A stretch of 64,000 bases of DNA, from the NCBI RefSeq assembly GCF_003018115.1, contig NZ_CP027457.1. One strand, written 5' to 3'. Under the pieces are notes generated by a model that worked only from the letters and a program-made list of their open reading frames with translations, searched no databases and was not told the DNA's origin. Made by a program: the position numbers and the translations under genes. Positions 48,399 through 64,000 of the stretch are shown one piece after another. Each line of letters starts with the position of its first letter. The first letter of the stretch is position 1. The DNA is from Escherichia coli. Its GTDB lineage: Bacteria; Pseudomonadota; Gammaproteobacteria; Enterobacterales; Enterobacteriaceae.

Positions 48399-49916
48399 AT
48401 GTCTGAACAACACGCACAGGGCGCTGACGCGGTAGTCGATCTTAACAATGAACTGAAAACGCGTCGTGAGAAGCTGGCGAACCTGCGCGAGCAGGGGATT
48501 GCCTTCCCGAACGATTTCCGTCGCGATCATACCTCTGACCAATTGCACGCAGAATTCGGCGGTAAAGAGAACGAAGAACTGGAAGCGCTGAATATCGAAG
48601 TCGCCGTTGCTGGCCGCATGATGACCCGCCGTATTATGGGTAAAGCGTCTTTCGTTACCCTGCAGGACGTTGGCGGTCGCATTCAGCTGTACGTTGCCCG
48701 TGACGATCTGCCGGAAGGCGTTTACAACGAGCAGTTCAAAAAATGGGACCTCGGCGACATCCTCGGCGCGAAAGGTAAACTGTTCAAAACCAAAACCGGC
48801 GAACTGTCTATCCACTGTACCGAGCTGCGTCTACTGACCAAAGCACTGCGTCCGCTGCCGGATAAATTCCACGGCTTGCAGGATCAGGAAGCGCGCTATC
48901 GTCAGCGTTATCTGGATCTCATCTCTAACGATGAATCCCGTAACACCTTTAAAGTGCGCTCGCAGATCCTCTCTGGTATTCGCCAGTTCATGGTGAACCG
49001 CGGCTTTATGGAAGTTGAAACGCCGATGATGCAGGTGATCCCTGGCGGTGCCGCTGCGCGTCCGTTTATCACCCACCATAACGCGCTGGATCTCGACATG
49101 TACCTGCGTATCGCGCCGGAACTGTACCTCAAGCGTCTGGTGGTCGGTGGCTTCGAGCGTGTATTCGAAATCAACCGTAACTTCCGTAACGAAGGTATTT
49201 CCGTACGTCATAACCCAGAGTTCACCATGATGGAACTCTACATGGCTTACGCAGATTACAAAGATCTGATCGAGCTGACCGAATCGCTGTTCCGTACTCT
49301 GGCACAGGATATTCTCGGTAAGACGGAAGTGACCTATGGCGACGTGACGCTGGACTTCGGTAAACCGTTCGAAAAACTGACCATGCGTGAAGCGATCAAG
49401 AAATATCGCCCGGAAACCGACATGGCGGATCTGGACAACTTCGACTCTGCGAAAGCGATTGCTGAATCTATCGGCATCCACGTTGAGAAGAGCTGGGGTC
49501 TGGGCCGTATCGTTACCGAGATCTTCGAAGAAGTGGCAGAAGCACATCTGATTCAGCCGACCTTCATTACTGAATATCCGGCAGAAGTTTCTCCGCTAGC
49601 GCGTCGTAACGACGTTAACCCGGAAATCACAGACCGCTTTGAGTTCTTCATTGGTGGTCGTGAAATCGGTAACGGCTTTAGCGAGCTGAATGACGCGGAA
49701 GATCAGGCGCAGCGCTTCCTGGATCAGGTTGCCGCGAAAGACGCAGGTGACGACGAAGCGATGTTCTACGATGAAGATTACGTTACCGCACTGGAACATG
49801 GCTTACCGCCGACAGCAGGTCTGGGAATTGGTATCGACCGTATGGTAATGCTGTTCACCAACAGCCATACCATCCGCGACGTTATTCTGTTCCCGGCGAT
49901 GCGTCCGGTGAAATAA
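48399..49916 (+). CDS. lysS: lysyl-tRNA synthetase, constitutive (505 aa)
   Basis: [34 protein letters not shown]-terminus; class II aaRS. Confidence 0.95.
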
Positions 49917-49930
49917 GCATTACGTTATGC

Positions 49931-49958
49931 TCACAACCCCGGCAAATGTCGGGGTTTT
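49931..49958. terminator. bidirectional intrinsic terminator between convergent lysS and idi
   Basis: aaccccg/cggggtt stem flanked by an A-run and a T-run. Confidence 0.7.
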
Positions 49959-50507
49959 TTATTTAAGCTGGGTAAATGCAGATAATCGTATTCTGGCTTC
50001 GCGATTTGTCGCCTGCATCACCATCCACGGACTGAACGCCCACGGCGTGGCATCAATACCGCGTAATACATCAGCTAAATCACACCATTGATAATCCATC
50101 ACTTCATCATCGTTGATCTGTAACGCACTGGTGGTGCGTGCGGCAAATACCGGACACACTTCATTTTCCACAATGCCATTCGGATCGGTGGCGCGATAGC
50201 GAAAGTCAGGATAGATAGATTCAGGAGGCGTAATTTCCACGCCAAGCTCATAACGGCAACGGCGGATCACCGCGTCTTCGTTGCTTTCTCCCAGTTGTGG
50301 GTGCCCACAAACCGAGTTAGTCCACACGCCAGGCCATGCTTTTTTGCTCAGTGCGCGGCGGGTAACTAATAATTGTCCTTTGGCATTAAACAGCCAACTG
50401 GAGAACGCGAGATGTAAGCGGGTGTCTGCCGTGTGTGCGGCATACTTTTCCAGCGTACCCGTGGGAACTCCCTGTGCATTCAATAAAATGACGTGTTCCG
50501 TTTGCAT
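49959..50507 (-). CDS. idi: isopentenyl-diphosphate delta-isomerase, Nudix family (182 aa)
   Basis: [41 protein letters not shown]. Confidence 0.9.
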
Positions 50508-50756
50508 AATTTCTCACATGTAATTCTGATCACTCATCATTATAGATAATTGAAGAGTGAAATGATTAACCAAGTGAGCGTTTATCGACAACCGCCCGTT
50601 TTGAGCGGATGTCGACAGGTAAAAACCATTTAAAAAAGTAGCATCATATATTTGAAGCGACTTTCAATGGCCATTGCAACACAGTCAGAAATGACAGGAA
50701 TAGAGAGAGTAAAAAGCAACAGCAGACTGAATATAGCGCGCATTAAAAAATTCATA

Positions 50757-52205
50757 TTATTCTCCATGCTCATTTTTCTTCAGCTTGCGCATCAGAAGCC
50801 ACATACGTACTGTCCTGACTTTTAAATCTTTATCAGAGACGGATTCCTTCACCAGGTCAGCATGATGCTGGTAGCCATTAAAGAAGACATTCAGCACAAC
50901 GGCGCTAAGGGTTGCGAGCATAATGCCGCTATGCAGCAGCGGTTGCAGTACGGCCGGTAACTTAGAAAAGAAATCGTGAGAGAGCGTCGGAGTCATGCCA
51001 ACGCCGAGACTGATCGCCACAATATAGAGGTTGTAACGGTTGGTGGTGTAGTTACAGCGCGACAGAATTCGAATCCCTGTCGCCAGTACCATGCCGAACA
51101 TCACCAGCCCAGCGCCGCCCAGCACAAATTGCGGAATGGAGGCTACCAGCACCGCCATTTTTGGCACCATGCCAAACAGGATTAATATAATTCCCGAAGA
51201 AATACACACCCAGCGGCTATGAACGCGCGTCACGCTAACCAGGCCAACGTTTTGAGAAAATGACGTGTGGGGGAAGCTGTTAAACGTGCCACCAATCATT
51301 GTCCCTACGCCATCGACACGCAGCCCGCGAATAATATCGTGCGAAGAGAGTTTACGACCGACTATTTCACCCAGTGCCAGGAACATCCCCATCGACTCGA
51401 TAAACACGATGATTAACACGGCAGTCATGGTCAGAATGGAAACGGGATCGAAAATCGGCATACCAAACGACATCGGCGTAACAATCGCAAACCACGAGGC
51501 ATCATGTAGCCCGGATAAATTGACTTCATTCATCATCCACGAAAGTAAAAAGCCAAATACAATCCCCAGTAATACGGCGACGTTGGACATAAATCCTTTC
51601 GCATAGCGAGTAATGAGCAAGATAAAAATTAAGACGGCAAAGGAGATACCTAAATAAACGGGATTACCATATTGCGGATTCCCTTTACCTCCGGCGGCCC
51701 AGTCAATACCCACCTGAATGATGCTAAGCCCGATAGAAGTAATAACCACACCGGTAACCAGTGGCGGAAATAAAGGCATCAAGCGACCGATAAGTGGCGC
51801 TAATAATGTGGTGATAAAACCCGCGGCGATAGTGGCACCAAATATCCCCAGCAGGCCGATATCCGGGTTCATCCCAATGGCTATCATTGGTGTTACAGCA
51901 GCAAAGGTCACCGACATAATCACCGGCAGGCGGATCCCCATAAAGCGGCCGATACCGATACATTGCAATAATGTGACGATCCCGCAGCAAAAGAGATCCG
52001 AGCTAATGAGCATCGCAATAGCATCTTTTGAGAGGCCCAGTCGGTCACCAATCATAAGAGGAACAGCGACTGCACCTGCGTACATGACAAGGACGTGTTG
52101 CAGACCGAGTATGATCAGCTTTCCTGGTGATAATATGCGGTCAACCTCATCAGTTGGGCGGTCTTGCCCAGAAGATGAGGGAAGTTGGGAATCTATGGCG
52201 CTCAT
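50757..52205 (-). CDS. uacT: uric acid/xanthine-family NCS2 permease (482 aa)
   Basis: MSAIDSQLPSSSGQDRPTDEVDR N-terminus at ATG 52205; NCS2 hydrophobic profile; the track ORF has a spurious 43-codon extension. Confidence 0.85.
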   Translation of the reverse strand: MSAIDSQLPSSSGQDRPTDEVDRILSPGKLIILGLQHVLVMYAGAVAVPLMIGDRLGLSKDAIAMLISSDLFCCGIVTLLQCIGIGRFMGIRLPVIMSVTFAAVTPMIAIGMNPDIGLLGIFGATIAAGFITTLLAPLIGRLMPLFPPLVTGVVITSIGLSIIQVGIDWAAGGKGNPQYGNPVYLGISFAVLIFILLITRYAKGFMSNVAVLLGIVFGFLLSWMMNEVNLSGLHDASWFAIVTPMSFGMPIFDPVSILTMTAVLIIVFIESMGMFLALGEIVGRKLSSHDIIRGLRVDGVGTMIGGTFNSFPHTSFSQNVGLVSVTRVHSRWVCISSGIILILFGMVPKMAVLVASIPQFVLGGAGLVMFGMVLATGIRILSRCNYTTNRYNLYIVAISLGVGMTPTLSHDFFSKLPAVLQPLLHSGIMLATLSAVVLNVFFNGYQHHADLVKESVSDKDLKVRTVRMWLLMRKLKKNEHGE

Positions 52206-52640
52206 CAGTGTTTCTCCTTTCGCCCGCCAGAGTAAAAAGCAACCGTTTACGTTAATGAAACTGTCTAAACACATGCTCGTGGAGTGCCAGTTTTTGCGAG
52301 GAAGGGGAGTTAGAGACAGGAATTGCGGAGGCAATCACATAATCGTGGTTAAACCACGAAAATGAGAAGAGAACCTGACAATGGAATTATCTGTAATTTT
52401 CTCATATTGATATTTCATTAATCATTCTGGCATGTCGCACTCTCGCATTTAATCGTTTTTATCTGGATAGCGCTCTTTTGATCGGCAATGTTGAAATAAT
52501 GAAAGCGGCATAGATTGAGGGGCAATAATTTGAACTCAGTCGCAAAATTATAATTAAAACGGTCATGCTACCTAATATATGCCCGTTTATTGCATCGCGA
52601 AATTTGAGAAGACATAACTCATTAAATGAAAGGGATGCAA

Positions 52641-54560
52641 ATGAATAAGTTTATCGCTGCTGAAGCTGCGGAATGTATAGGCTGTCATGCTTGTGAAATT
52701 GCCTGTGCGGTGGCACACAATCAAGAAAACTGGCCGCTGAGTCACAGTGACTTTCGACCACGTATCCACGTTGTAGGGAAAGGCCTGGCTGCGAATCCGG
52801 TGGCCTGCCATCACTGCAACAATGCCCCTTGCGTTACGGCTTGTCCGGTTAATGCTCTGACTTTCCAGTCCGATAGCGTACAACTGGACGAGCAAAAATG
52901 TATTGGTTGTAAAAGATGCGCAATCGCTTGCCCCTTTGGCGTCGTTGAGATGGTCGATACGATTGCGCAGAAATGCGACCTTTGTAACCAGCGCAGTTCC
53001 GGCACGCAAGCCTGTATTGAAGTCTGCCCAACACAGGCGTTACGGCTGATGGACGATAAAGGGTTACAGCAGATAAAGGTGGCCCGCCAGCGCAAAACGG
53101 CAGCAGGAAAAGCGTCATCAGACGCTCAGCCATCTCGCAGTGCAGCGTTGCTCCCCGTTAACTCGCGTAAAGGCGCAGATAAAATTTCAGCAAGTGAACG
53201 GAAAACCCACTTTGGCGAAATCTATTGCGGGCTGGATCCACTGCAAGCGACTTATGAGAGTGACCGCTGTGTTTATTGTGCCGAAAAAGCTAACTGCAAC
53301 TGGCATTGCCCGCTGCATAACGCTATTCCGGATTACATCCGTCTGGTACAGGAAGGAAAGATTATTGAAGCGGCAGAACTTTGCCACCAGACCAGTTCCT
53401 TACCAGAAATTTGCGGCAGGGTATGTCCACAGGACCGTCTTTGTGAAGGCGCATGTACTTTGAAAGATCACTCGGGCGCAGTCTCTATCGGTAATCTGGA
53501 ACGCTACATCACCGATACCGCGCTGGCGATGGGCTGGCGTCCCGATGTCAGCAAAGTTGTTCCCCGTAGCGAAAAAGTGGCGGTGATTGGCGCTGGGCCA
53601 GCAGGGTTAGGGTGTGCTGATATTCTGGCGCGCGCGGGAGTTCAGGTTGATGTCTTTGATCGCCATCCAGAAATTGGCGGTATGCTGACTTTTGGCATTC
53701 CTCCTTTCAAACTCGATAAAACGGTATTAAGCCAGCGGCGAGAGATATTCACCGCAATGGGAATCGACTTTCATCTTAACTGTGAAATTGGCCGCGATAT
53801 TACCTTTAGCGATTTAACTTCTGAATATGATGCAGTTTTCATCGGCGTGGGGACTTACGGGATGATGCGAGCAGATCTGCCGCATGAAGATGCGCCCGGT
53901 GTCATTCAGGCTCTACCGTTCCTGACTGCCCATACCCGCCAGCTCATGGGATTGCCGGAGTCTGAAGAGTATCCGCTGACGGACGTGGAAGGTAAGCGAG
54001 TCGTGGTATTGGGCGGTGGCGATACGACAATGGATTGTTTGCGGACTTCCATCCGCCTCAATGCCGCCAGCGTGACCTGCGCGTATCGTCGTGATGAAGT
54101 CAGTATGCCGGGCTCGCGCAAAGAGGTGGTTAATGCGCGCGAGGAAGGTGTCGAGTTTCAGTTCAATGTTCAACCGCAATATATCGCTTGTGACGAAGAT
54201 GGGCGTTTAACTGCGGTGGGCCTGATTCGTACCGCCATGGGTGAGCCGGGGCCGGATGGTCGCCGTCGTCCTCGTCCGGTAGCGGGTTCAGAGTTTGAAT
54301 TGCCCGCCGATGTTCTGATTATGGCCTTTGGTTTCCAGGCGCATGCCATGCCGTGGTTGCAGGGCAGCGGAATTAAACTCGATAAATGGGGCCTGATTCA
54401 AACCGGTGACGTCGGGTATTTACCTACCCAGACGCATCTGAAAAAAGTCTTTGCTGGTGGTGATGCAGTTCATGGCGCGGATCTGGTTGTCACTGCAATG
54501 GCCGCAGGAAGGCAGGCGGCGCGCGATATGTTAACTCTGTTTGATACGAAGGCATCGTGA
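52641..54560 (+). CDS. ygfT: Fe-S flavoprotein oxidoreductase: N-terminal 4Fe-4S ferredoxin domains fused to a GltD-like NAD(P)H/FAD domain (639 aa)
   Basis: Multiple CxxCxxCxxxCP clusters followed by a dinucleotide-binding motif [14 protein letters not shown]. Confidence 0.85.
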
Positions 54561-55048
54561 TGAAATCGTTAATTATCGTTAATCCGGCTGACTGTATTGG
54601 CTGCCGTACTTGTGAAGTAGCCTGTGTGGTCGCTCACCCTTCAGAACAGGAGTTGAATGCCGATGTCTTTTTACCCCGGCTGAAGGTACAGCGACTGGAC
54701 AGCATCAGTGCGCCGGTGATGTGCCATCAGTGTGAAAACGCCCCTTGTGTTGGCGCTTGCCCCGTGGGGGCGCTGACGATGGGCGAGCAGGTGGTGCAGA
54801 CCAATTCTGCCCGTTGTATTGGCTGTCAGAGTTGCGTCAGTGCGTGCCCGTTGGGAATGATCACCATTCAGTCGTTGCCGGGGGATACCCGACAACAAAT
54901 TGTGAAATGCGATCTCTGTGAACAGCGGGAAGAGGGGCCAGCCTGTGTTGAATCTTGCCCGACACAGGCGCTGCAGTTGCTTACTGAAAGAGAACTCAGG
55001 CGAGTCCGCCAGCAGCGTATTGTTGCCAGCGGTGAGAATCCTCTGTGA
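54560..55048 (+). CDS. ygfS: 4Fe-4S ferredoxin-type protein (162 aa from ATG 54560; GTG at 54557 also possible)
   Basis: Four CxxCxxCxxxCP motifs; start overlaps the ygfT stop. Confidence 0.85.
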
Positions 55049-55083
55049 AAGAAATCTCCGCGCTGAAAGGCGCGGAGAATCTA

Positions 55084-56451
55084 TTAGATTGCCCAACCAC
55101 CCGCGTAAAATGCGACCAGTGCGGCAGTAATGATCACCGTACCAATATTCAACTTTTGCCATTCGCGAGCAAAGACACGGCCTACGACCAGTGTCACAAA
55201 GCCCAGCATAATACCGGTAACGATATTACAAGTCAGAACGATGAACACGGCACACACCAGGCCAGCCATTGCGTCAATAAAATCGTTGAAATCCAGCTTC
55301 GAGACGTTACTTAACATCAGCAAACCCACGTACATCAGAGCGGGTGCAGTGGCGTAACCAGGGATCAAAAATGACAGCGGTGATAAGAACAGAATCAGCA
55401 GGAATAACGCCCCCACTACGGTTGCGGTCAACCCTGTTTTACCCCCGGCGGCGGTTCCTGCCGCTGATTCGATATAAACCGCTGCGGGCGCTGCGCCCAC
55501 CAGACCGGAGAATATTGAACTTACTGAGTCACTGGTCAGGGCTTTGCCGCCATTGATGATCTGGTTGTCTTTATCCAACAAATTCGCCTGACCGGCGACG
55601 GCACGGATGGTGCCAGTGGCGTCGAACACTGCGGTCATCACCAATGCCAGTACACTCGGAAGTACGGTTGGCTGGAGTGCGCCCATAATATCGAGGCTGA
55701 AAATCAGAGACTTACCATCTTCGCCAGTCAGACTTGGCATCGCCACCAGACCGTGGTATTTCACCGCTGGGTCAAAGATTAAGCCGATAATCGAAATTGC
55801 GATAATCACCAACAAGATCCCGCCGGGTACGCGGCACTTCTCCAGACCGAAGATGACCGCCAGCCCCAGCAAGCTCATCATCACCGGGAAGGAGGTAAAC
55901 GCACCGAGCGCCACTGGCAAGCCTTCAATCGGGTTTTTGATAACCATACCCACACCGTTAGCAGCAATCAGCAGCAGAAACAGGCCGATACCGATACCTG
56001 TACCGTGAGCGATACCCATCGGTAAATTACGTAAGATCCAGGTACGCACACCGGTTACGGAAATAGCGGTGAAGATGACGCCCATCAGAAAGACCGCGCC
56101 CAGTGCGACAGGAACGCTAATTTGTTGCCCGAGTACCAGACTGAATGCGGTAAATGCCGTCAAGGAAATCGCACAACCAATCGCCATTGGCAAATTGGCC
56201 CACAACCCCATCAGCAACGAGCCGAAGCCCGCGACCAGACAGGTGGCAACAAACACAGCTGCGGGAGGAAAACCTGCTTTGCCCAGCATTCCCGGAACGA
56301 CGATAACGGAATAAACCATGGCCAGAAAGGTCGTTAAGCCAGCCAGTACTTCCTGACGAACGGTACTGCCACGAGCGGTAATTTTAAAATAATTATCCAG
56401 CGCGCCCTGTGGCTTTGGTGCGTCCGGTGTTTGTAGGATGTCTCCAGACAT
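55084..56451 (-). CDS. ghxQ: guanine/hypoxanthine permease, AzgA-like NCS2 family (455 aa)
   Basis: [47 protein letters not shown]. Confidence 0.85.
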
Positions 56452-56486
56452 AATGATGTCCTCACGAGGATGTTAAAGTTTTATTA

Positions 56487-57806
56487 TTAGTTGCGTTCGT
56501 ACACCAGACGACCATCAACGTAGGTGCGGTAGATCGAACGGTCATCGCCCAACGTCATCATCACGAACAATTTGTCGACTAAAGAAACAGAGTTGTCATA
56601 GCGCAGCTGCTGTAGCGGAGTGGCGGTGGGTTCCATCACCACGAAATCAGCCTCTTTGCCAGGTAAAAAGTTGCCAATCAAATCGTCAAGGCCCAGAGAT
56701 TTCGCTCCGCCGAGCGTGGCCAGGTAAAACGCTTCATATGCCGAGAGGCGATAGCCTTGTAATTGCAATACTTTGTAGGCTTCGTTCAGCGTTTGCAGCA
56801 TGTTGAAAGTGGTTCCGGCACCGATATCCGTTCCCATGCCCACTTTAACTTTCTTCTGCCATGCTTTTTTCAAGTTGAATAACCCGCTGCCGAGGTAAAG
56901 GTTGGAGGTCGGACAGAAAGCAATGCTGGATTTGGTTTCGCTGAGACGATCCCACTCTTTTTCTTCGAGATGGACGCAGTGAGCAAAGACACAGTTTTTA
57001 CCGGTCAGGCCGTACTGATGGTAAACATCCAGATAACCATCATGGTCAGGATAAAGCGATTTCACCCAGGCAATTTCATCTTTGTTTTCACAGAGATGGG
57101 TATGTACCCACGTATCCGGATATTCCTCTTTCAGGCGTTGCGCCATCGCCATCTGTTCAGGAGATGAGGTAGGGGCGAATCGTGGCGTAATCGCATACAA
57201 CAGACGACCATTTTTGTGCCAGCGTTCGATCAGTTCTTTGCTTTGGTGATAGCTGCTTTCGGCAGTGTCGAGCAGATAATCCGGTGCGTTGCGGTCCATC
57301 ATCACCTTACCGGCAATCATACGCATATTGATATGACTGGCGGCTTCAAACAGCGCATCAACAGATTGCGGATGAACAGTGCCAAACACCAGCGCCGTGG
57401 TGGTTCCGTTACGTAAAAGCTGCTTGATGAAGAACGCCGACATTTCGCGGGCGTACTCTAAATCCTCATAACGACGTTCAGTAGGGAAGGTGTGTTTATT
57501 CAACCACTCCAGCAATTGCTCACCATAGGCCCCCACCATTTCACTTTGCGGATAATGGATATGTGTATCGACAAAGCCCGGTACTATCAGTTTGCCGCGA
57601 TAGTCGCGCACGCGAATGGTGTCAGGAATTTGATGCTTTCCGTTTTCCCATTCGCCAAACCATTCCACTTTTCCCTGTTTAATGAGTAATAAACCATCCT
57701 CAATAAACCGCAGCGCAGAGGCAATCTCTTCCGGGTTATCGACCGTACGGGTGACATCAATAAAACTGCCTCGTACCGCTTTTAACGTGTGTTTTCCTGA
57801 CATCAT
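56487..57806 (-). CDS. guaD: guanine deaminase, amidohydrolase superfamily (439 aa)
   Basis: MMSGKHTLKAVRGSFIDVT N-terminus; metal-binding HxH (GFVDTHIHYPQ). Confidence 0.9.
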   Translation of the reverse strand: MMSGKHTLKAVRGSFIDVTRTVDNPEEIASALRFIEDGLLLIKQGKVEWFGEWENGKHQIPDTIRVRDYRGKLIVPGFVDTHIHYPQSEMVGAYGEQLLEWLNKHTFPTERRYEDLEYAREMSAFFIKQLLRNGTTTALVFGTVHPQSVDALFEAASHINMRMIAGKVMMDRNAPDYLLDTAESSYHQSKELIERWHKNGRLLYAITPRFAPTSSPEQMAMAQRLKEEYPDTWVHTHLCENKDEIAWVKSLYPDHDGYLDVYHQYGLTGKNCVFAHCVHLEEKEWDRLSETKSSIAFCPTSNLYLGSGLFNLKKAWQKKVKVGMGTDIGAGTTFNMLQTLNEAYKVLQLQGYRLSAYEAFYLATLGGAKSLGLDDLIGNFLPGKEADFVVMEPTATPLQQLRYDNSVSLVDKLFVMMTLGDDRSIYRTYVDGRLVYERN

Positions 57807-57820
57807 TGACTCCTTTACTG

Positions 57821-59221
57821 TTAATCCATCTCTTCCGCTGAGGTAATACCAGGCAGAACGTTTTCCTGTCGGTAGCCACCAGGGAGGATAATATTTAATA
57901 AAATCGCAGTTAACCCGCCAGCACAAATAGGGTTTTCAACTAATACATAAATAGAGGCTGGCAATATTTTAAAAATTTCGGGATCGTAGGAGACGCCAAG
58001 CCCTAAACCTAAAGAAGTGGCGACAATAAGTGTTTCACGCCGCTTTAATCCGTTGGTGATGATGATGCGAATCCCAGCGATGGCAATCATGGAAAACATC
58101 AACGTCATTGCGCCTCCCAGAACTGCCGAGGGAATGGTCGTGAAGAAGCCGCCAATCATCGGAAATAAGCCGAGGATAACCAGCATTACCGCGATGGTTC
58201 GCCCGACATAACGTGAAGCGACGCCAGTCATCTGAATAACCCCATTATTTTGCGCAAACGTGGTTAATGGTAATGAACCAACAGCGGAGGCGATAACAGA
58301 AACCAGACCATCTGCCAGCACGCCGCCTTTCAGTCGGGACTGATACTCTTCCCCCTGAATGGGGCGGCGGGAAACCATTGCCGTGGCGGTGATATCGCCG
58401 ACTGCTTCCAGCACGCTAAGCAGATAAATCGTGCCAACCACCAGGAACTGATGGAAGCTAAAACTAAAGCCGTATTTGAACGGATGTGGGATGGTGATTA
58501 ACGGCAAATTGCGCATACTGCTGAAATCCACCATGCCCAGGCATAACGACGCGATATAACCGACGCATAGCCCAATGGCGATCCCTCCCATGCGTAGCAA
58601 CGGACTGCGACAGCAGTTAAAGCCGATCACCACAATCAAAACCAACAAACCAACGCCGAGATGTTCGTAATTGCCGAACGTACCGCTGCTTTTGGCAGCA
58701 AACCCACCGCCAAAATCGATAATGCCGACTTTAATCAGGCTTAAGCCGATCATCAGTACCACAATACCGCTGACGGTAGGCGTAATAACCCGACGTAAAT
58801 AGGGCAAGATAAATGAAGATCCGACAACCAGAAATGCGCCAACGAAGGAGACGCCGAGAAGCGACGACATGATTAACTCTTCGTGAAAACCGTCGCTTTT
58901 CATGCTGCTGCCCAGCGCAATCATGACCGTAACAAATGAAAAATTGACTGACTGAATTGAGAGTAGGCCAGAACCGACGATGCCGTAGCGGTTTACTTGT
59001 AACCAGGTACCAATACCAGAGGCGATCATCGCCATAGAAACAAGATAGGCGGTTGTTTCAGCGGAAAGCTGTAAGGCCGCACCCACGATTAACGCGGGGG
59101 TTACCATCGGAACGAAAATTGCCAACAGATGGGTAATGGCACCAACGAGAGCCTGATGAAAGGGAGGGCGATCCTCCAGTTCAAATATAAGGTCAGAACC
59201 TGCATGGTTTATATCAGACAT
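57821..59221 (-). CDS. xanQ: xanthine permease, NCS2 family (466 aa)
   Basis: MSDINHAGSDLIFELEDRPPFHQALVGAITHLLAIF N-terminus. Confidence 0.9.
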   Translation of the reverse strand: MSDINHAGSDLIFELEDRPPFHQALVGAITHLLAIFVPMVTPALIVGAALQLSAETTAYLVSMAMIASGIGTWLQVNRYGIVGSGLLSIQSVNFSFVTVMIALGSSMKSDGFHEELIMSSLLGVSFVGAFLVVGSSFILPYLRRVITPTVSGIVVLMIGLSLIKVGIIDFGGGFAAKSSGTFGNYEHLGVGLLVLIVVIGFNCCRSPLLRMGGIAIGLCVGYIASLCLGMVDFSSMRNLPLITIPHPFKYGFSFSFHQFLVVGTIYLLSVLEAVGDITATAMVSRRPIQGEEYQSRLKGGVLADGLVSVIASAVGSLPLTTFAQNNGVIQMTGVASRYVGRTIAVMLVILGLFPMIGGFFTTIPSAVLGGAMTLMFSMIAIAGIRIIITNGLKRRETLIVATSLGLGLGVSYDPEIFKILPASIYVLVENPICAGGLTAILLNIILPGGYRQENVLPGITSAEEMD

Positions 59222-59349
59222 CCCTTCACTCCTTTTAAAGTAAATTTGATCATCTGAATTAGTAAAATAAATTCCCACGAATTTGGGGCGCAGGACGCCT
59301 TGAGAACGGCTTATCTCATTTTCGCAGTCACTATTTAGTCATCGTTCAA

Positions 59350-59385
59350 ACAGAGAAACAGGCCGCCGAAGCGGCCATTTATTAT
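59350..59385 (-). terminator. hairpin downstream of xdhD
   Basis: ggccgc-ttcg-gcggcc stem with U-rich tail on the minus strand. Confidence 0.45.
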
Positions 59386-62256
59386 TTATATTTTTTCCAG
59401 CGCAGTGAGTATTTTCTCCGGTGTGAAATGCCATTCGCGTAACCAGATGCCGCATGCATCGTGAATTGCGGTAGCAATCGCCGGAGCTGCGCCATTTACA
59501 CCGATTTCCGAGATCGATTTCGCCCCGAACGGGCCGACTTTATCGTCGCTCGGCACCAGCACAGCGCGGAAATCACGCGGAATGTCACCAATTTTCGGTG
59601 CGCCGTAACTGCGTAAATCACGCGTTAACGGGTGACCTTCGGCGTCATAAATGATCTCTTCGCTCATACTGTGGCCGATAGCTCGCAGGGTAGCACCGTA
59701 GATTTGTCCCAATGCTAATTCCGGGTTGACCGGTGTACCGCAGTCCAGCAAGGCGTAGAATTTATCCAGGCGGATTTCACCCGTACGCGTGTTGACGGCA
59801 ACTTCAGCGAAGTTTGCGCCATACGGGAAGGCGAAATCAGGCGTGATATAACTGCCAGTTCCCACCAGTGAACCAAAGCCGGTGCCGGTTTCGCCTTTAT
59901 GGGCAATATCCCCGAAACTAACTTCGCCTTTCTTGCCGCGCACGACGCCCGGCGTTGCCAGTTGAACATCTGCCACTGCCTCACCCAACATTTGCGCGCC
60001 GTGGAACAGAATTTTCTCCCGTAGATTTTCCGCTGCCAAACGCGCCGCGTTACCCGAGAAGCAAGTACCGGACGAGGCATATGCGCCTTTATCAAACAAC
60101 GCATGATCGGTATCACCGGAGATAACATGCACGTCCTGTGGTGGGCAGTGCAGCACTTCTGCTGCCAGTTTCGTCACCACAGTATCCAGACCAGTACCAA
60201 TATCCGCACCGCCAGAATGAACAATAAAGGTGCCGTCCGATTCCAGTTTGATCATGCAGTTAGCCTGATCGATATCCGGAATACCCGATTTCTGCATGAT
60301 AATGGCGACGCCGCGACCGATGTGCCAGTCACCATTTTGCGGTTTCGGTGAAGACCATTGGATCATCTCGCGACCCTGACGCAGGATCTCTTCCAGTGCA
60401 CAGCTGGCGGCGGAAGGAACGGAGGTCGGCGCTTTACCTTCACCGATTGCACCGAGAATTTTCAGCTCTTGCCCTTCGTGTACCCGGTTACGTTCGATAA
60501 TTTCCAGTTGGTCGATCTGTAACTGTTCAGCAAGTTCCGCTAATGCCATGGTGATAGCGAAGTTACCTTTCGGTGCGCCATAACCCTGATAAGCACCATT
60601 TGGGCAAATGTTGCTGTAGTAGGTGGTGACCTGGAAATCGACGTTATCGCACGGATATAACGGCAGCGACAGCGCCGGTCCGTTACACGGTACGGTGAGT
60701 GAGTGGTTGCCGTAAGGGCCAGTGTTGGCGCGGAAATCCATCTTCACTGCCGTCAGGCGACCATCTTTTTTCGCTCCCAGTTTGACGGTGACTTTCGCGA
60801 CGTGACGAGAGGTGTTAGCAATAAACTCTTCTTCACGGGTGTAGCGGAACAGTACCGGACGCCCGGTCACGCAGGTTGCCCAGGCGCACACTTCTTCCAG
60901 CAGGATGTCCTGTTTGGAACCAAAACCGCCGCCAACTCGCTCTTTAATGACATGAACTTTATGCTGTTTCATGCCCACGAGGCGCGCGACCTGGCGGCGT
61001 AAGTGCCATGGTACCTGGGTGGAGGCGTGGATAACCAGACGATCGCCGTCCATCCGGGTAAAGCAGATATGTGTTTCAGTCGGGCACTGCTGTGCCTGCG
61101 TTGAGTTATAGGTTCGCTCAATGATCACATCGGCATCGGCAAAGCCTTTGTCCATATCGCCAATATGACCATGAATACTGGCGGCGATATTTTTGCGAGG
61201 GCGAGAACCGATCGGGAAGTTGATGATCATATGCTCGCCGCGCTGGGCTGCATGGCTGTTATCGTCTTCCAGAGTATCTGGCGCACCAGCAACATACACC
61301 ACCGGTTCATCGTGCACGACAGGCGCATCTTCCGCCATTGCTTCGTCGATCGACATTACCGGCTTAAGCACTTCATATTCAACGTCGATGAGCTTCAGTG
61401 CTTCGAGCGCAATTTCTTCACTTTCTGCGACGACCGCAGCAACACGATCGCCGACGTGACGCATTTTCTTGCCGAACATACGGCGGTCAAGCGGTGACGG
61501 TTCCGGTGCGCTCTGACCCCCCGGGGTATAGTAGATATCCGGGCAATTCAGGTGAGTAATAACGTGAACGACGCCCGGTAAGGCTTCAGCTTTGCTGACA
61601 TCCAGATGAGTAATCAGTGCGTGAGCGTGTGGGCTACGTAACATTTTAATGACGCAGGCGTCAGCCGTTACGCGGTCTTCAACATAGCAGGGTTTCGCCT
61701 GCACCATTTTCGCGGCATCAGTTTTAGGATAATGCTTGCCAATGACTTCAAGGTCGTCACGGAAAGTCGGAGCGATATCAATGGTGGCCTGCGGATTATT
61801 TTTACGTGCAACCGCCAGTTCAATGACCTGATAGTATTGTTGCCAGCCTGCATCGCGGCTGAACAAACCAGAAAGCGCGTCGTCGATCTCTTCGCGGGTA
61901 GGTGCGGCGATGCGATCGAGAAGATCGGTGATAATCAGAGCTGCAGCTGGATCGTTATAACCAGACTGCACCACGCCAACATCAACCATTGCCTGTTGAA
62001 CCAGACTTAACTCGTTCCATTTGCCCAGAGATTCTGCGGTACGAATATCTGCCTTCTCTAACTGTGCGGCAATAAGCAAGGACGCGTTAACGATATTACC
62101 GTTAAAGATTATTGCGTCAGAACCGGCAAACCCGAAGCCATCATCACTGTTGCGTACAGAGTGCATTCCCATGTTAAACAACAGCTTTTGCACGTTTTCG
62201 CCTGGATTAACGGTTAGCTCCTGAGGCGCGCCATTTAAAGTAAAGTGGATGATCAT
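59386..62256 (-). CDS. xdhD: molybdopterin-dependent xanthine-dehydrogenase-family fused subunit (956 aa)
   Basis: 956-aa ORF whose length and position (between xanQ and ygfM) match XdhD; no individual motif was checked. Confidence 0.85.
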   Translation of the reverse strand: MIIHFTLNGAPQELTVNPGENVQKLLFNMGMHSVRNSDDGFGFAGSDAIIFNGNIVNASLLIAAQLEKADIRTAESLGKWNELSLVQQAMVDVGVVQSGYNDPAAALIITDLLDRIAAPTREEIDDALSGLFSRDAGWQQYYQVIELAVARKNNPQATIDIAPTFRDDLEVIGKHYPKTDAAKMVQAKPCYVEDRVTADACVIKMLRSPHAHALITHLDVSKAEALPGVVHVITHLNCPDIYYTPGGQSAPEPSPLDRRMFGKKMRHVGDRVAAVVAESEEIALEALKLIDVEYEVLKPVMSIDEAMAEDAPVVHDEPVVYVAGAPDTLEDDNSHAAQRGEHMIINFPIGSRPRKNIAASIHGHIGDMDKGFADADVIIERTYNSTQAQQCPTETHICFTRMDGDRLVIHASTQVPWHLRRQVARLVGMKQHKVHVIKERVGGGFGSKQDILLEEVCAWATCVTGRPVLFRYTREEEFIANTSRHVAKVTVKLGAKKDGRLTAVKMDFRANTGPYGNHSLTVPCNGPALSLPLYPCDNVDFQVTTYYSNICPNGAYQGYGAPKGNFAITMALAELAEQLQIDQLEIIERNRVHEGQELKILGAIGEGKAPTSVPSAASCALEEILRQGREMIQWSSPKPQNGDWHIGRGVAIIMQKSGIPDIDQANCMIKLESDGTFIVHSGGADIGTGLDTVVTKLAAEVLHCPPQDVHVISGDTDHALFDKGAYASSGTCFSGNAARLAAENLREKILFHGAQMLGEAVADVQLATPGVVRGKKGEVSFGDIAHKGETGTGFGSLVGTGSYITPDFAFPYGANFAEVAVNTRTGEIRLDKFYALLDCGTPVNPELALGQIYGATLRAIGHSMSEEIIYDAEGHPLTRDLRSYGAPKIGDIPRDFRAVLVPSDDKVGPFGAKSISEIGVNGAAPAIATAIHDACGIWLREWHFTPEKILTALEKI

Positions 62257-63032
62257 ACGGCTTCCTCCCCAGCCTGTTGGCAGTCGGCATACAGGTCGGC
62301 TACCAGAACTCCCGTGATATAGCGTTTATAGGCTACGCTGCCCCGCAAATCTTCCTGCGGGAAAATGTCGTTGGCGACAGCCTGTTCAAGTGCATTGCCT
62401 TCCAGATTTTGTTTTTCGACATCGTGCAGACGCAGTGCTTTACTGGCGACGCCATCCAGCGCAATTCGCATACCGTCGTGGTCTGTTATTGCAACGGCTG
62501 CCGTCACGACGGTTAAACCTGCCTGAGAACGGCTAATTTTGCGGGTCGCACAGGTGCGATACGGATCTTTAATGATAATTTCGGTTAGCAGGCGATCGCA
62601 TGGGCAGGCCAGGTAGTCCTCGATTGACAGCGTTTCGCCGTTGCCAAAAACCAGTTCAGCATCCAGTGCCAGCAGGACGGGAAGCAGCACCGACTCTTCC
62701 TGGCGGGCGGCGATTTCACCACCAATGGTCGACTGATTACGAACATGGCGTGAGTAAACAAAACCGAGGGCTTCACGCAGCGCTGCAGGAATAAATCGCG
62801 CATCACGCAGTGGCTGCAAGCGAGACATTGCGCCAATCCGCAGCGCACCGTTATCCCAGTCAACCCAGTCCAGTTCCAGATCCTGTAAGGAGATGGCAAT
62901 CTTTTTATCGGTACGGGTTGGTGTAGCATTGAGTTTGCTGCCCCCGGCGAACCAGACGGCTTCATCCTGGTAGCGGCGCTTCAGTTCCAGCGCCTGTTCG
63001 ACAGAGTCGGGCCTGAAAAATTGTTCAATCAT
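62253..63032 (-). CDS. ygfM: FAD-binding subunit of a molybdo-oxidoreductase, CoxM-like (259 aa)
   Basis: Stop overlaps the xdhD start; FAD-binding PCMH-type domain. Confidence 0.85.
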   Translation of the reverse strand: MIEQFFRPDSVEQALELKRRYQDEAVWFAGGSKLNATPTRTDKKIAISLQDLELDWVDWDNGALRIGAMSRLQPLRDARFIPAALREALGFVYSRHVRNQSTIGGEIAARQEESVLLPVLLALDAELVFGNGETLSIEDYLACPCDRLLTEIIIKDPYRTCATRKISRSQAGLTVVTAAVAITDHDGMRIALDGVASKALRLHDVEKQNLEGNALEQAVANDIFPQEDLRGSVAYKRYITGVLVADLYADCQQAGEEAV

Positions 63033-63082
63033 CTTCTTTCCTTATTTAACCCTCTTCCCTGCGGGAAGAGGGCATCTGTCAT

Positions 63083-64000
63083 TTATGCCAGCGTATCCAT
63101 CCGACGCCACATACTGGCAGCGGCTTTTCTGGCTTGTGCATAAATGGAATCGCAATCGAAGTTAAACTGACGGTCTTCATAGACCATCACACCGTTGACC
63201 ATCACGCTGTGAACGCTGCCTGAGCCCATACCGAAAGCGATATGCCCGGCGATATTGTCTGCCAGCAGCGGCGTCGGTGAGTTGTAATCGCAAATGGTTA
63301 AATCAGCTTTGTAACCGGCTTCCAGAAGCCCAAATTTCGCGCCAAAGTTGCGGCTCATCAGTTCGTTACCGTTAGTCAGGGCTTTGGCAAAACTGTCAGG
63401 CCACAGCGGACCACCCGCATCGCGATGTTTAAAGAAGGCAAATTTCATCTCTTCAAACATGTCCGAACCAATGCCGTCCGTTCCCAACGCCAGATTGCGG
63501 ATGTCGCTAAGGTGATGGTTGTAGCCGACATGGTTGTTCATGTTTGAACGGGCGTTATGCACCAGGAACGCATCGCGCTGATTGAGTAGGGTGATGTCAT
63601 CTTTCGACAAGTACAGCCCATGAGCGACCAGCGTTTTGCTATCGATGAGATCGAATTGCGCTAGTCGTGCCAGCAGGTCTTTGCCGTACCAGTGGTGACT
63701 GTAGGAAACGTCGTAAAGGTCTTCCGCAGCGTGAATATGCAAACCACGGCCTGTGGCTTTCACGGCTTCACGTAGCATCTCCAGACCGGCATCCGGCACG
63801 GTAAACGGCGCGTGAGCACCGATATGTGCTTCCACCAGATACGGCTCGGTTGCTGCTTTCTTCGCCTCATCAATCTGACGGGCGAAGCGGATGTTTTCTT
63901 CTACACCTTCCTGCAACTCTTTGATGCCGTTGTTACGGTCAGTAGTTTCAAAACAGGTCATCGCGCGCAGGCCAACTTTTAAAAATGCGTCGCGCAATGT
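63083..64000 (-). CDS. ssnA: putative aminohydrolase SsnA, C-terminal ~304 codons; start lies beyond the window end
   Basis: ORF open to the window edge; assigned as ssnA from its position in the xdhD-ygfM cluster and amidohydrolase-like size. Confidence 0.8.
   Translation of the reverse strand, partial: TLRDAFLKVGLRAMTCFETTDRNNGIKELQEGVEENIRFARQIDEAKKAATEPYLVEAHIGAHAPFTVPDAGLEMLREAVKATGRGLHIHAAEDLYDVSYSHHWYGKDLLARLAQFDLIDSKTLVAHGLYLSKDDITLLNQRDAFLVHNARSNMNNHVGYNHHLSDIRNLALGTDGIGSDMFEEMKFAFFKHRDAGGPLWPDSFAKALTNGNELMSRNFGAKFGLLEAGYKADLTICDYNSPTPLLADNIAGHIAFGMGSGSVHSVMVNGVMVYEDRQFNFDCDSIYAQARKAAASMWRRMDTLA

Follow-up and report, generated by a model that had tools for sequence, protein, structure and literature searches.

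A candidate bidirectional sigma-54 control module and a proposed formate electron input at the uacT/ygfT-ygfS locus of Escherichia coli

The window that we analyzed, a 64,000-nucleotide stretch of Escherichia coli DNA, carries at 50757-64000 the uacT / ygfT-ygfS / ghxQ-guaD-xanQ / xdhD-ygfM-ssnA part of the purine and urate island, the half of the anaerobic purine/urate catabolic island of E. coli that lies on the uacT side. The genes are ordinary and the cluster is already published; the conserved layout of regulator sites in the spacer between uacT and ygfT is so far undescribed. We favor, with moderate confidence, a combined model that joins a bidirectional sigma-54 module in this spacer to an FdhF-YgfS/YgfT electron input. 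The 435-bp spacer would serve as an enhancer-promoter module for both directions, in which YgeV would bind a central dyad pair (52400-52432) and loop to divergent -24/-12 promoters of uacT (52290-52274) and ygfT (52578-52594); CRP-type sites about 68 bp upstream of the predicted starts would confer glucose sensitivity and probably supply a DNA bend, and hypoxanthine or guanine would exert further repression, in Escherichia and Citrobacter, through a PurR operator in the leader of uacT. YgfS and the HycB-like N-terminus of YgfT would dock on formate dehydrogenase H (FDH-H), formate electrons would reach the GltD-like FAD/NAD(P) domain in YgfT along [4Fe-4S] chains, and XdhD-YgfM and YgfK would draw on the NAD(P)H regenerated in this way. 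The spacer layout is drawn from comparative analysis only.

Genes of the locus and the urate pathway

RefSeq annotation of an E. coli chromosome with 99.4% identity, the ORF list and Pfam domains served to check the coordinates, and all named genes were found intact at the positions given here; the gene identities and the divergent arrangement reported in the initial annotation are correct by RefSeq annotation and Pfam. The urate importer UacT, a urate:H+ symporter of the NAT/NCS2 family, is encoded by an intact ORF on the minus strand (uacT or ygfU, 50757..52205; RefSeq; Pfam PF00860, E=1e-123). On the plus strand, ygfT (uacF, 52641..54560; Pfam Fer4_11, Fer4_20 and Pyr_redox_2; PDB matches GltD, NfnI and HycB) is followed by ygfS (54560..55048; Pfam Fer4 families; PDB 7Z0S_B), which encodes a HycB/HydN-like 4x[4Fe-4S] ferredoxin. 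All others lie on the minus strand: the xanQ-guaD-ghxQ group (55084..59221; RefSeq, PF00860 twice plus Amidohydro_1), made up of the guanine/hypoxanthine permease gene ghxQ (55084-56451), the guanine deaminase gene guaD (56487-57803) and the xanthine permease gene xanQ (57821-59221); xdhD (59386-62256) and ygfM (62253-63032), for the Mo/2x[2Fe-2S] and FAD subunits of urate reductase (Pfam Fer2_2, Ald_Xan_dh_C, MoCoBD_1, MoCoBD_2 and FAD_binding_5 for the pair); and the amidohydrolase gene ssnA (63083..64000; RefSeq, Amidohydro_1), of which the 3' two-thirds are present and the rest lies beyond the window end. Two groupings made earlier hold in part: within the supposed molybdo-oxidoreductase module xdhD and ygfM belong together, whereas SsnA is an amidohydrolase outside the molybdenum enzyme, and within the supposed Fe-S flavoprotein pair YgfT has both Fe-S and FAD domains, whereas YgfS is a pure 4x[4Fe-4S] ferredoxin without a flavin domain.

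The locus is present in 5373 of 5426 complete E. coli genomes (the uacT-ygfT spacer in 5315), with a nucleotide identity of 95-99.4% to thousands of them. The reductive (2,8-dioxopurine) uricolytic cluster of E. coli (Iwadate & Kato 2019; Liu et al. 2022/2023; Li et al. 2025) is this very locus, with identical gene content and order; the cluster runs xdhABC-ygeV-ygeWXY-hyuA-yqeA ... ygfK-ssnA-ygfM-xdhD ... ygfT-uacT; there is no difference at the gene level, and the window spans only the uacT-to-ssnA part. Most of the urate pathway has now been solved: with NADH, the urate reductase XdhD-YgfM converts urate to 2,8-dioxopurine, after which YgfK and SsnA dearomatize and then open the ring, SsnA being the amidohydrolase that opens it once YgfK has reduced the substrate (10.1101/2025.05.19.654654). 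XanQ, GhxQ and GuaD account for xanthine, guanine and hypoxanthine import and guanine deamination. The published work on the cluster describes neither the cis-elements of the uacT-ygfT spacer nor a biochemical role for YgfT/YgfS.

YgfT, YgfS and the electrons for urate reduction

YgfT, which RefSeq names formate-dependent uric acid utilization protein, combines a HycB-like 4x[4Fe-4S] N-terminal domain with a GltD/NfnB-like domain (2x[4Fe-4S], FAD and an NAD(P)H site). Residues 176-631 match GltD (E=8e-108, PDB; further PDB matches NfnI and HycB), and the C-terminal part carries Fer4_20, Pyr_redox_2 and Rossmann motifs. Compared with other GltD-like proteins (the glutamate synthase beta subunit, NfnB, the N-terminal module of dihydropyrimidine dehydrogenase and the paralogue AegA), YgfT shares the match to GltD and differs by its extra N-terminal polyferredoxin domain; we know of no partner catalytic subunit for it. 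YgfS has 16 Cys in four motifs, its best PDB match is the formate hydrogenlyase subunit HycB (7Z0S_B, E=7e-31), and it is 45% identical to YgfT(1-157); for both, the closest HycB-type relative of solved structure is HycB, the FDH-H partner. The ygfS start overlaps the ygfT stop by 1 nt (TGATG), so that ygfS is probably translationally coupled to ygfT. The gene is missing in Citrobacter sp. R56 and is therefore dispensable there.

In Klebsiella aerogenes, Salmonella enterica arizonae and Intestinirhabdus alba, fdhF directly adjoins uacT-ygfT-ygfS. This neighboring fdhF is about 90% identical to E. coli FDH-H; its codon 140 is an in-frame TGA, and its SECIS element scores 84 bits. The presence of a selenocysteine fdhF beside uacT-ygfT-ygfS supports a formate-oxidizing FdhF-YgfS/YgfT electron input module as a candidate arrangement. 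The likeness is to the FdhF-HycB input module of formate hydrogenlyase (PDB 7Z0S), to whose HycB both YgfS and the YgfT N-terminus are nearest, with four [4Fe-4S] motifs each, and the shared features extend to the fdhF neighborhood of ygfT-ygfS in the three genera; the proposed difference is that the acceptor would be a GltD-like FAD/NAD(P) domain and not a hydrogenase. YgfT (UacF), together with AegA, is reported to be genetically needed for formate- and FDH-H-dependent urate degradation. Two results on AegA count against the proposed module: a two-hybrid test detected no interaction of AegA with FdhF, and the dye activity of FDH-H was unaffected by AegA. The initial annotation held that the electron path from YgfT/YgfS to XdhD is not established, which is still so: YgfT/AegA 'await further experimental work' (PMC8097209), and the 2025 urate-pathway papers do not address YgfT.

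It is possible, but not probable, that YgfT/YgfS instead give formate-derived low-potential electrons directly to the Fe-S clusters of XdhD (or YgfK), as a dedicated ferredoxin-type donor that bypasses free NAD(P)H; YgfT would then have its NAD(P)H site as a side entry or as part of an electron-bifurcating system. The xanthine/urate couple lies at about -360 mV, lower than NAD+/NADH, which counts for such direct donation, as do the requirement of the clostridial enzyme for an artificial donor in vitro (the physiological donor is not known) and the PDB matches of YgfT to NfnI and Stn-type subunits. AegA/YgfT has been suggested to act in bifurcation like NfnAB (PMC8097209), and YgfK alone gave no detectable product, for which the authors suggest unfavorable thermodynamics with NAD(P)H as a possible reason (10.1101/2025.05.19.654654). 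E. coli XdhD-YgfM, however, runs on NADH in vitro and brings an FAD subunit of its own, YgfK likewise contains an NAD(P)H/FAD module (10.1101/2025.05.19.654654), and Klebsiella-type clusters keep a FAD_binding_5 domain on Xdh. Our preferred reading remains the regeneration of NAD(P)H by YgfT.

Regulatory elements of the uacT-ygfT spacer

The spacer (52206-52640) is exactly 435 bp long and has a GC content of 39.1%, whereas the window as a whole has 51.8%. Across six genera, eight orthologous spacers align with a mean column identity of only 55%, yet with discrete invariant islands; these phylogenetic footprints bear out the earlier assignment as a control region, and on sequence conservation the spacer is just that, not AT-rich filler. 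A motif search of 52206-52640, proposed with that assignment, found two predicted divergent sigma-54-type promoters, dyads, CRP-like sites and a PurR-type operator.

The sigma-54 activator YgeV (PAS, sigma-54 AAA+ and Fis-type HTH domains) has an iModulon comprising ygfT, uacT, xdhABC, ygeWXY, hyuA, ygfK, ssnA, ygfM and xdhD (PMC10602906, PMC12133099). Dyad 1 (TCTCATATTGATA, 52400..52412), a proposed YgeV UAS common to both promoters, is invariant across genera in the eight-orthologue alignment and is the sole zero-mismatch match to TMTCANNNTGAKA in the 64-kb window. Dyad 2 (AATCATTCTGGCA, 52420..52432), a degenerate second proposed UAS 20 bp from dyad 1, keeps its TCATT-TG core in all eight orthologues; its counterpart in Klebsiella, Salmonella and Intestinirhabdus is TCTCATTTTGGTA, 22-23 bp from dyad 1. 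The dyad consensus is TMTCA-N3-TGAKA, and because the central pair recurs upstream of ygfK, ygeW and xdhA, we propose it as the YgeV enhancer. The exact 12-mer CTCATATTGATA occurs three times, once each in the uacT-ygfT and ygeV-ygeW spacers and upstream of xdhA, about 0.15 one-mismatch matches being expected per sequence; in L014 there are seven one-mismatch dyad matches against 0.62 expected, a count reached in 0 of 100 shuffles. Four genera have a perfect dyad upstream of ygfK, zero-mismatch dyads are concentrated in sigma-54 spacers in all genera, and in each genus the proximal dyad precedes the uacT start by 142-152 bp.

The dyads might belong to another regulator (a urate/purine-responsive repressor or a nucleoid protein), with YgeV binding elsewhere, which we consider unlikely. 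The literature searched yielded no published YgeV site, the dyad on a reading of its sequence resembles the WATCAA core of IHF sites, and perfect dyads also occur inside the ygeX and yqeC coding sequences; but no full IHF consensus was found, the Fis-type HTH of YgeV is typical of dyad-binding activators, and each of the five sigma-54 promoters in the YgeV iModulon has dyads upstream of it, at distances typical of enhancers (-130 to -235) and often in pairs 20-23 bp apart.

The proposed enhancer would serve two predicted promoters. The -24/-12 element of uacT (CTGGCACTCCACGAGCA, 52274..52290, minus strand; predicted start near 52263) keeps TGGCA(-24), GC(-12) and their spacing in all orthologues examined while its flanks diverge; its score is weak (7.5 bits), and it is absent from the published sigma-54 ChIP-seq table (PMC4591121). 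The ygfT-ygfS element (TATGCCCGTTTATTGCA, 52578..52594, plus strand; predicted start near 52605) is the published ChIP-seq site OS32, with a weak peak (FAT 3; PMC4591121); its -12 element TATTGCA is invariant in the eight orthologues, and its -24 element is non-canonical (TG for GG; 7.0 bits). Both scores fall below the training minimum (8.0 bits) of the position weight matrix (PWM), which was built from ChIP-seq sites, and such matches occur about once per 2 kb in the window; the critical dinucleotides and spacing of both elements are kept across six genera. Back-to-back -24/-12 promoters around a central activator-binding region are likewise found at hycA/hypA (FhlA) and zraP/zraS (ZraR), both paired sites in the ChIP-seq table (PMC4591121). 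The uacT/ygfT promoters differ from these in that both elements are off consensus and each is paired with a CRP-like site fixed at -68. To our knowledge, such a fixed site is not a described feature of the hycA/hypA or zraP/zraS systems.

The low PWM scores, the emphasis of Bonocora et al. that many sigma-54 sites are not promoters (PMC4591121) and the inferential nature of the iModulon assignment to YgeV would fit a spacer driven by ordinary sigma-70 promoters, with non-functional -24/-12-like elements and a weak ChIP signal from non-productive sigma-54 binding. We judge this quite improbable: a promoter scan found no sigma-70-like hexamer pair within 52206-52640, the GG/GC (uacT) and TTGCA (ygfT) cores are invariant in six genera at fixed distances to the start codons and the -68 sites, and ygfT expression is reportedly ygeV-dependent, being lower in a ygeV mutant.

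Along with the predicted sigma-54 promoters, each side of the spacer has a CRP-like site centered 68.5 bp upstream of the predicted start. The uacT site (TGTGA-N6-CCGCA on the minus strand, 52324..52339) occupies the same position in every genus, with conserved half-sites and a variable N6 spacer, and is near-consensus (TGTGA-N6-TCACG) in Klebsiella, Salmonella and Intestinirhabdus. The CRP/FNR-like site of ygfT (TTTGAACTCAGTCGCA, 52529..52544) is conserved as TTTGA-N6-TC(G/A)CA in all eight orthologues, at -67.5 or -68.5 wherever the two-mismatch scan passed. Sites at -67.5 or -68.5 are found at uacT, ygfT, ygfK and xdhA, and in five other taxa the position is the same at all uacT and ygfK promoters examined and at four of five ygfT promoters. 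Many of the left half-sites are degenerate, and the bound protein could be CRP, FNR or another. Glucose represses urate degradation, and a Crp site has been reported in the ygeV-ygeW spacer.

The predicted uacT leader contains, at +12 to +27, a PurR-type box (ACGTAAACGGTTGCTT, 52237..52252, minus strand; 19.0 bits) that is the best match in the 64-kb window outside the training set of a PurR PWM built from 26 ChIP-chip sites. Escherichia and Citrobacter share this box, which four other genera lack, and we regard it as a strong candidate PurR operator. PurR ChIP-chip enrichment extends over 1 kb adjoining this box and ends about 90 bp short of it, with no reported change in expression (PMC3159470). 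The motif assigned to that region, 'ygfT-ygfS', is an intragenic box within ygfT (GGGCAAGCGATTGCGC, 52918..52933, minus strand; 14.2 bits; PMC3159470); it overlaps the codons of the Fe-S motif CAIACP, and coding constraint there may account for its conservation. The PurR-repressed permease genes xanP, adeP/yieG and ghxP/yjcD likewise have a 16-bp box with a central CG near an NCS2 permease promoter, but theirs lie over sigma-70 -35/-10 elements, whereas the candidate box of uacT lies downstream of a predicted sigma-54 promoter.

Extent of co-regulation

Co-regulation of ygfT-ygfS with the purine genes, as first supposed, applies to part of the region: ygfT, which is strongly induced by urate (10.1101/2022.07.24.501321), shares the YgeV iModulon with uacT, xdhD, ygfM and ssnA, whereas xanQ-guaD-ghxQ is not in the iModulon list. 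Motif and PWM scans upstream of xanQ found no dyads, no PurR box and no strong sigma-54 match; with this group not listed in the iModulon and none of the regulon's cis-elements found upstream of it, the 13-kb region is therefore not a single regulatory unit. That ygfT-ygfS lie beside purine genes by coincidence and have an unrelated redox function, as the name 'glutamate synthase small chain' given to YgfT in many genomes might suggest, is highly improbable and already effectively refuted by published genetics, given the reported genetic requirement, the urate induction of ygfT, and a divergent uacT-ygfT-ygfS arrangement kept in Escherichia, Klebsiella, Salmonella, Trabulsiella and Intestinirhabdus, always within the urate cluster.

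A terminator scan found two hairpins. A GC-rich hairpin in the convergent ygfS/ghxQ gap (55055..55078; 9-bp stem with 7 GC pairs, then a T-run) is likely a bidirectional terminator, and a second (GGCCGCCGAAGCGGCC, 59361..59376; found on both strands), directly 3' of xdhD, is the likely terminator of the ygfK-ssnA-ygfM-xdhD operon.

The urate cluster and its published regulon

The 13.2-kb stretch is matched in 5373 of 5426 complete E. coli genomes, with the best matches 99.4% identical over its full length. The gene coordinates of the initial annotation agree exactly with the RefSeq annotation of a 99.4% identical E. coli chromosome: uacT (50757-52205, - strand), ygfT (52641-54560, +), ygfS (54560-55048, +), ghxQ (55084-56451, -), guaD (56487-57803, -), xanQ (57821-59221, -), xdhD (59386-62256, -), ygfM (62253-63032, -) and ssnA (from 63083, -, truncated at the end of the window). 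All of the cluster's open reading frames are intact, and each carries the expected Pfam domains. UacT, XanQ and GhxQ are NAT/NCS2 nucleobase permeases with full-length matches to PF00860 (Xan_ur_permease; 413, 370 and 272 bits, respectively, against a cut-off of 27); XdhD is a molybdenum hydroxylase of the xanthine dehydrogenase family (PF01799, PF01315, PF02738 and PF20256, with 2Fe-2S, a/b hammerhead and MoCo-binding domains), and YgfM is the separate FAD_binding_5 subunit (PF00941) of XdhD-YgfM. Two small annotated open reading frames, yqfH and yqfG, lie at 50562-50756, an AT-rich interval (39-43% GC) between idi and the 3' end of uacT, and a weak match to an sRNA model (50584-50686), at chance level (E=0.4), falls in the same stretch. 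An Rfam scan of 49500-64000 (E<=1) returned three chance-level matches only, none of them in the uacT-ygfT spacer.

These genes form the distal half of the anaerobic urate island of E. coli, a cluster known at textbook level and recently characterized; what we add is a cis-regulatory map of the uacT-ygfT spacer and a hypothesis concerning FdhF (FDH-H) and YgfS/YgfT. XdhD co-purifies with YgfM and converts urate to 2,8-dioxopurine using NADH, after which YgfK and SsnA dearomatize the ring and then open it (Li et al., 10.1101/2025.05.19.654654, PMC12507026). Because YgfK and SsnA act jointly after the XdhD-YgfM reduction, SsnA, which the initial annotation had included in a molybdo-oxidoreductase module, is to be reassigned as a partner of YgfK rather than of the Mo enzyme.

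Urate strongly induces ygfT and ygfK (Liu et al., 10.1101/2022.07.24.501321); the YgeV iModulon of PRECISE-1K (YgeV being a sigma-54 activator) comprises ygfT, uacT, xdhABC, ygeWXY, hyuA, ygfK, ssnA, ygfM and xdhD; and a ygeV mutant reportedly expresses less ygfT. Expression data had been named as the means of refuting co-regulation of ygfT with the purine genes, and since iModulon membership and urate induction are both published, that comparison has in effect already been run: ygfT and uacT share the YgeV iModulon, and ygfT responds to urate. Co-regulation holds for ygfT, uacT, ssnA, ygfM and xdhD; xanQ-guaD-ghxQ are not listed in the iModulon, and regulon-type cis-elements were looked for upstream of xanQ and none was found.

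Proposed promoter and enhancer elements of the uacT-ygfT spacer

The 435-bp spacer separating the divergent uacT and ygfT genes (52206-52640) is indeed AT-rich (39.1% GC, compared with 51.8% for the window) and carries no annotated feature among the matching E. coli genomes listed. From its sequence we infer two sigma-54 promoters with phased CRP-like sites, an enhancer of the YgeV type that both promoters would share, and a PurR operator. For comparison we used orthologous spacers from three other Escherichia lineages, two Citrobacter, Trabulsiella, Klebsiella aerogenes, Salmonella enterica arizonae and Intestinirhabdus alba; the divergent uacT / ygfT(-ygfS) layout is retained in all of the orthologous loci collected, and an eight-sequence alignment of the spacer has a mean column identity of 55%, with sharp invariant islands.

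One predicted sigma-54 element of the -24/-12 type, CTGGCACTCCACGAGCA, faces uacT (52290-52274, - strand). Its GG and GC are exactly 10 bp apart (TGGCAC-N5-TTGC type), and neither its TGGCA and GC cores nor their spacing vary in any of the orthologues examined. The flank of the -12 motif, GAGCA, is poor, the position weight matrix (PWM) score of 7.5 bits is below the training range, and the element is absent among the intergenic sigma-54 ChIP-seq sites of PMC4591121. The predicted ygfT element, TATGCCCGTTTATTGCA (52578-52594, + strand), is identical to ChIP-seq site OS32 (FAT 3; Bonocora et al., PMC4591121); its -12 motif, TTGCA, is the consensus, the canonical GG at -24/-25 is replaced by TG in E. 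coli and by CG in other genera, and its PWM score is 7.0 bits. Both scores are under those of almost all ChIP-derived training sites, and equally good matches occur about once per 2 kb, so that by PWM score alone neither element stands out; the case for them is one of conservation, position and published ChIP data. An RpoN ChIP-exo paper and a 2010 sigma-54 microarray paper make no mention of uacT or ygfT. Given these low scores, the TG/CG substitution and the absence of the uacT element from the ChIP-seq table, our regulatory model rests on conservation, geometry and published expression. A scan for sigma-70-like promoters and terminators found no hexamer pair within the spacer, and its total count equalled the shuffle expectation. 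Two other candidates were discarded: TGGCATGTCGCA at 52429, as a sigma-54 promoter, has the wrong spacing and is not conserved in Citrobacter R56, and the perfect 15-bp palindrome CGTGGTTaAACCACG (52344-52358) was dropped as a regulator site because its conservation already fails within Escherichia and Citrobacter.

Between the two predicted promoters lies a pair of inverted repeats, TCTCATATTGATA (52400-52412) and AATCATTCTGGCA (52420-52432). The dyad TMTCA-N3-TGAKA has a single zero-mismatch occurrence in the 64-kb window, and this is in the spacer; elsewhere in the E. coli island, perfect dyads are found upstream of ygfK and in the ygeV-ygeW spacer. The exact 12-mer CTCATATTGATA has three copies in the 92 kb searched (uacT-ygfT spacer, ygeV-ygeW spacer and upstream of xdhA). 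With the stricter form TATCA-N3-TGATA, L014 (the E. coli locus holding the rest of the urate island) contains seven one-mismatch matches against 0.62 expected, a number reached in 0 of 100 shuffles. Perfect dyads recur in the uacT-ygfT spacers of Trabulsiella, K. aerogenes, I. alba and Citrobacter R56 (with one mismatch in S. arizonae), and also upstream of ygfK in K. aerogenes, S. arizonae and I. alba. The dyads, often paired with 20-23 bp between members, stand at -131 to -234 relative to five sigma-54 promoters (uacT, ygfT, ygfK, ygeW and xdhA); these positions fall within the 100-250 bp upstream of each promoter expected of an enhancer for a sigma-54 activator, and such dyads are also present in five other taxa. 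We propose that the dyads are the YgeV enhancer, because they lie upstream of all five promoters and YgeV (PAS, sigma-54 AAA+ and Fis-HTH domains) is the sole sigma-54 activator linked to these genes; no published YgeV binding site was found in the literature searched. The distance from the proximal dyad to the start is 142-152 bp for uacT in all genera, but 163-257 bp for ygfT, and from this near-constant distance on one side and variable distance on the other, the enhancer seems to be placed for uacT and to reach ygfT through a looser loop. Perfect dyads also occur inside coding sequence, at L014:11690-11702 in dpaL/ygeX and L014:5076-5088 at the yqeC end (TATCAAGATGATA and TCTCAATGTGAGA), where they could be either chance matches or internal enhancers acting, for instance, on yqeB.

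A CRP-like site (TGTGA-N6-TCACA with at most two mismatches) accompanies each promoter. The transcription start was taken as 12 nt downstream of the -12 GC, which gives predicted starts near 52263 (- strand) for uacT and 52605 (+ strand) for ygfT. On this basis the E. coli sites are centred at -68.5 for uacT and ygfT, at -67.5 for ygfK and xdhA, and at -77.5 for ygeW; ygfK has an extra near-consensus site at -97.5 or -98.5. The uacT-side site (52324-52339) reads TGTGA-N6-CCGCA on the uacT (-) strand, and TGTGA-N6-TCACG in Klebsiella, Salmonella and Intestinirhabdus; the ygfT-side site is TTTGAACTCAGTCGCA (52529-52544). Both have two mismatches in E. coli and one or two in orthologues, with half-sites conserved and the sequence between them variable. 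Among Citrobacter R56, Trabulsiella, K. aerogenes, S. arizonae and I. alba, the -67.5/-68.5 position is retained at every uacT and ygfK promoter examined and at four of five ygfT promoters (in Trabulsiella, three mismatches put the ygfT-side site below the scan cut-off). By our own estimate, the chance of such a match at one chosen position is about 4e-4 for random sequence, or about 4e-3 at the density seen in these AT-rich spacers; because these per-position odds are small, finding it at four of the five promoters, and again in other genera, goes far beyond chance. CRP is the obvious candidate to bind these sites, given that urate degradation is subject to glucose repression and that the ygeV-ygeW spacer reportedly contains a Crp site. 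The ygfT-side site, the left half of which is TTGA, may instead be bound by FNR or another family member; a consensus scan gave only one FNR-like match, at xdhA, and no IHF match.

PurR-type boxes and the uacT leader

A PurR-type box, ACGTAAACGGTTGCTT (52237-52252, - strand), lies on the uacT side of the spacer. It departs by one mismatch from the 16-bp consensus palindrome ACGNAAACGTTTGCNT and keeps the central CG, as expected of a predicted operator, and a PWM derived from 26 published PurR sites (training range 12.3 to 25.2 bits) gives it 19.0 bits, the top score in the 64-kb window outside the training set. The box is kept in Escherichia and Citrobacter and missing from other genera. The PurR ChIP-chip region 'ygfT-ygfS' corresponds to window positions 52344-53380 and ends about 90 bp from the ACGTAAACGGTTGCTT box; its authors assigned the region to a weaker intragenic motif at 52918-52933 (PMC3159470), a stretch that doubles as coding sequence for the Fe-S motif CAIACP. 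PurR-type boxes occur at uacT, within ygfT, ahead of ygfK and in the ygeV-ygeW spacer, which suggests that PurR touches the whole urate regulon. The last of these, ACGAAAACGTTTGGCT (L014:13424-13439), is strong (17.2 bits) and is not in the published PurR ChIP-chip table. Elsewhere in the window, its best sigma-54-type match, CTGTCGCGATTTTTGCA (33727-33743, + strand; 15.0 bits), sits about 90 bp away from AAGAGAACGATTGCGT (33821-33836), the PurR box known for gcvT.

The uacT leaders of K. aerogenes (L016:5469-5590), S. arizonae (L017:5496-5610) and I. alba (L018:5451-5565; all - strand) have no PurR box. These predicted leaders of 111-113 nt share the invariant stretches GGGAGGC..GCCUUCGAAUCGUAAC and GUCGUA-AGGAGA, as well as a hairpin with compensatory substitutions in its stem (five pairs in three sequences), and may be an undescribed cis-regulatory RNA. 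Rfam, run on these Klebsiella-type loci, gave no riboswitch match in the uacT leader and only the fdhF SECIS element.

YgfT, YgfS and a proposed electron input

YgfT is a GltD-like Fe-S flavoprotein (Fer4_20 followed by Pyr_redox_2; Pfam 124 and 94 bits), whose residues 176-631 make up a module of the GltD/NfnB type that holds FAD, an NAD(P)H site and two further clusters (PDB GltD, E=8e-108). YgfS (162 amino acids) is 45% identical to YgfT residues 1-157, and its start overlaps the ygfT stop codon (TGATG). YgfS and the YgfT amino terminus each have 16 Cys in four [4Fe-4S] motifs of the HycB/HydN type, and the closest solved relative of this type for both is HycB (7Z0S_B; E=7e-31 and 4e-30, respectively), the docking subunit for FDH-H in formate hydrogenlyase.

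A 715-codon gene directly adjoins uacT-ygfT-ygfS in K. aerogenes, S. enterica arizonae and I. alba; it encodes a protein with about 90% identity to FDH-H of E. coli, and has an in-frame TGA at codon 140 together with a SECIS element (84 bits). These compact urate clusters run in the order Xdh plus a 2Fe-2S subunit, fdhF, uacT, ygfT-ygfS, ssnA-ygfK, with a fused Xdh of 1071 amino acids (Mo and FAD domains). There ssnA-ygfK directly follows ygfS, and the ghxQ-guaD-xanQ-xdhD-ygfM block that parts ygfS from ssnA in E. coli is absent.

That no electron path from YgfT/YgfS to XdhD had been established was rightly remarked in the initial annotation: a 2021 review states that AegA (the YgfT paralogue) and YgfT 'await further experimental work' (PMC8097209), the 2025 pathway papers do not treat YgfT, and a 2025 commentary counts the physiological donor of electrons to the initiating Mo enzyme among the open questions. 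Urate degradation requires aegA, ygfT, ygeV, formate and FDH-H, according to Iwadate and Kato (2019) as relayed by Liu et al. (10.1101/2022.07.24.501321). Given this formate and FDH-H requirement, the fdhF neighbourhood and the fact that XdhD-YgfM and YgfK depend on NAD(P)H, the simplest model would be that FdhF oxidizes formate, that electrons run through the [4Fe-4S] chains of YgfS and the YgfT amino terminus to the YgfT FAD, where NAD(P)+ would be reduced to NAD(P)H, and that NAD(P)H would feed both reductases, XdhD-YgfM and YgfK. A serious rival to this NAD(P)H shuttle is that electrons are delivered directly from one Fe-S cluster to another, or by a bifurcating mechanism. Two observations count against the proposed FdhF module. 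A two-hybrid test gave no interaction between AegA and FdhF, and in Citrobacter sp. R56 (L004:4001-7339) ygfS is absent and ghxQ begins 63 bp after ygfT, indicating that the separate ferredoxin is dispensable in at least one lineage.

A more far-reaching reading would be that the urate regulon of enterobacteria has an unusual promoter design, in which each sigma-54 promoter (uacT, ygfT, ygfK, xdhA and ygeW) combines a YgeV dyad with a CRP-type site about 68 bp upstream, CRP acting as an obligatory DNA-bending co-activator that replaces IHF; that the spacer is a single bidirectional module; and that FdhF-YgfS-YgfT is a previously unrecognized soluble formate:NAD(P)+ (or formate:urate-reductase) oxidoreductase. 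We hold this combination tentatively, at a little under an even chance. Were the oxidoreductase real, the long-unknown role of the AegA/YgfT family would be explained, and the fdhF neighbourhood already offers a concrete, testable hypothesis for the biochemical role of both proteins. A defined YgeV site would likewise let the regulon be searched in other genomes. Anaerobic urate-degrading gut bacteria lower host urate, an ability for which E. coli Nissle is being engineered; in the engineered strain the ygeV-ygeW promoter was the only one replaced. If uacT and ygfT-ygfS are served by promoters of their own, gated by YgeV, CRP and PurR, then urate uptake and formate electron supply may stay glucose- and purine-repressed in such strains, and these two promoters would be the obvious next engineering targets.

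YgfT (80-93% identity) and YgfS (82-91%) diverge faster than the flanking permeases and GuaD (93-99%). In Buttiauxella sp. A111 (L012:1454-5911), a YgfT/AegA-like gene (58% identity) is divergent from a gene for an XdhD-like molybdenum enzyme (27% identity), giving another pairing of this Fe-S flavoprotein family with a Mo hydroxylase, outside the urate cluster.
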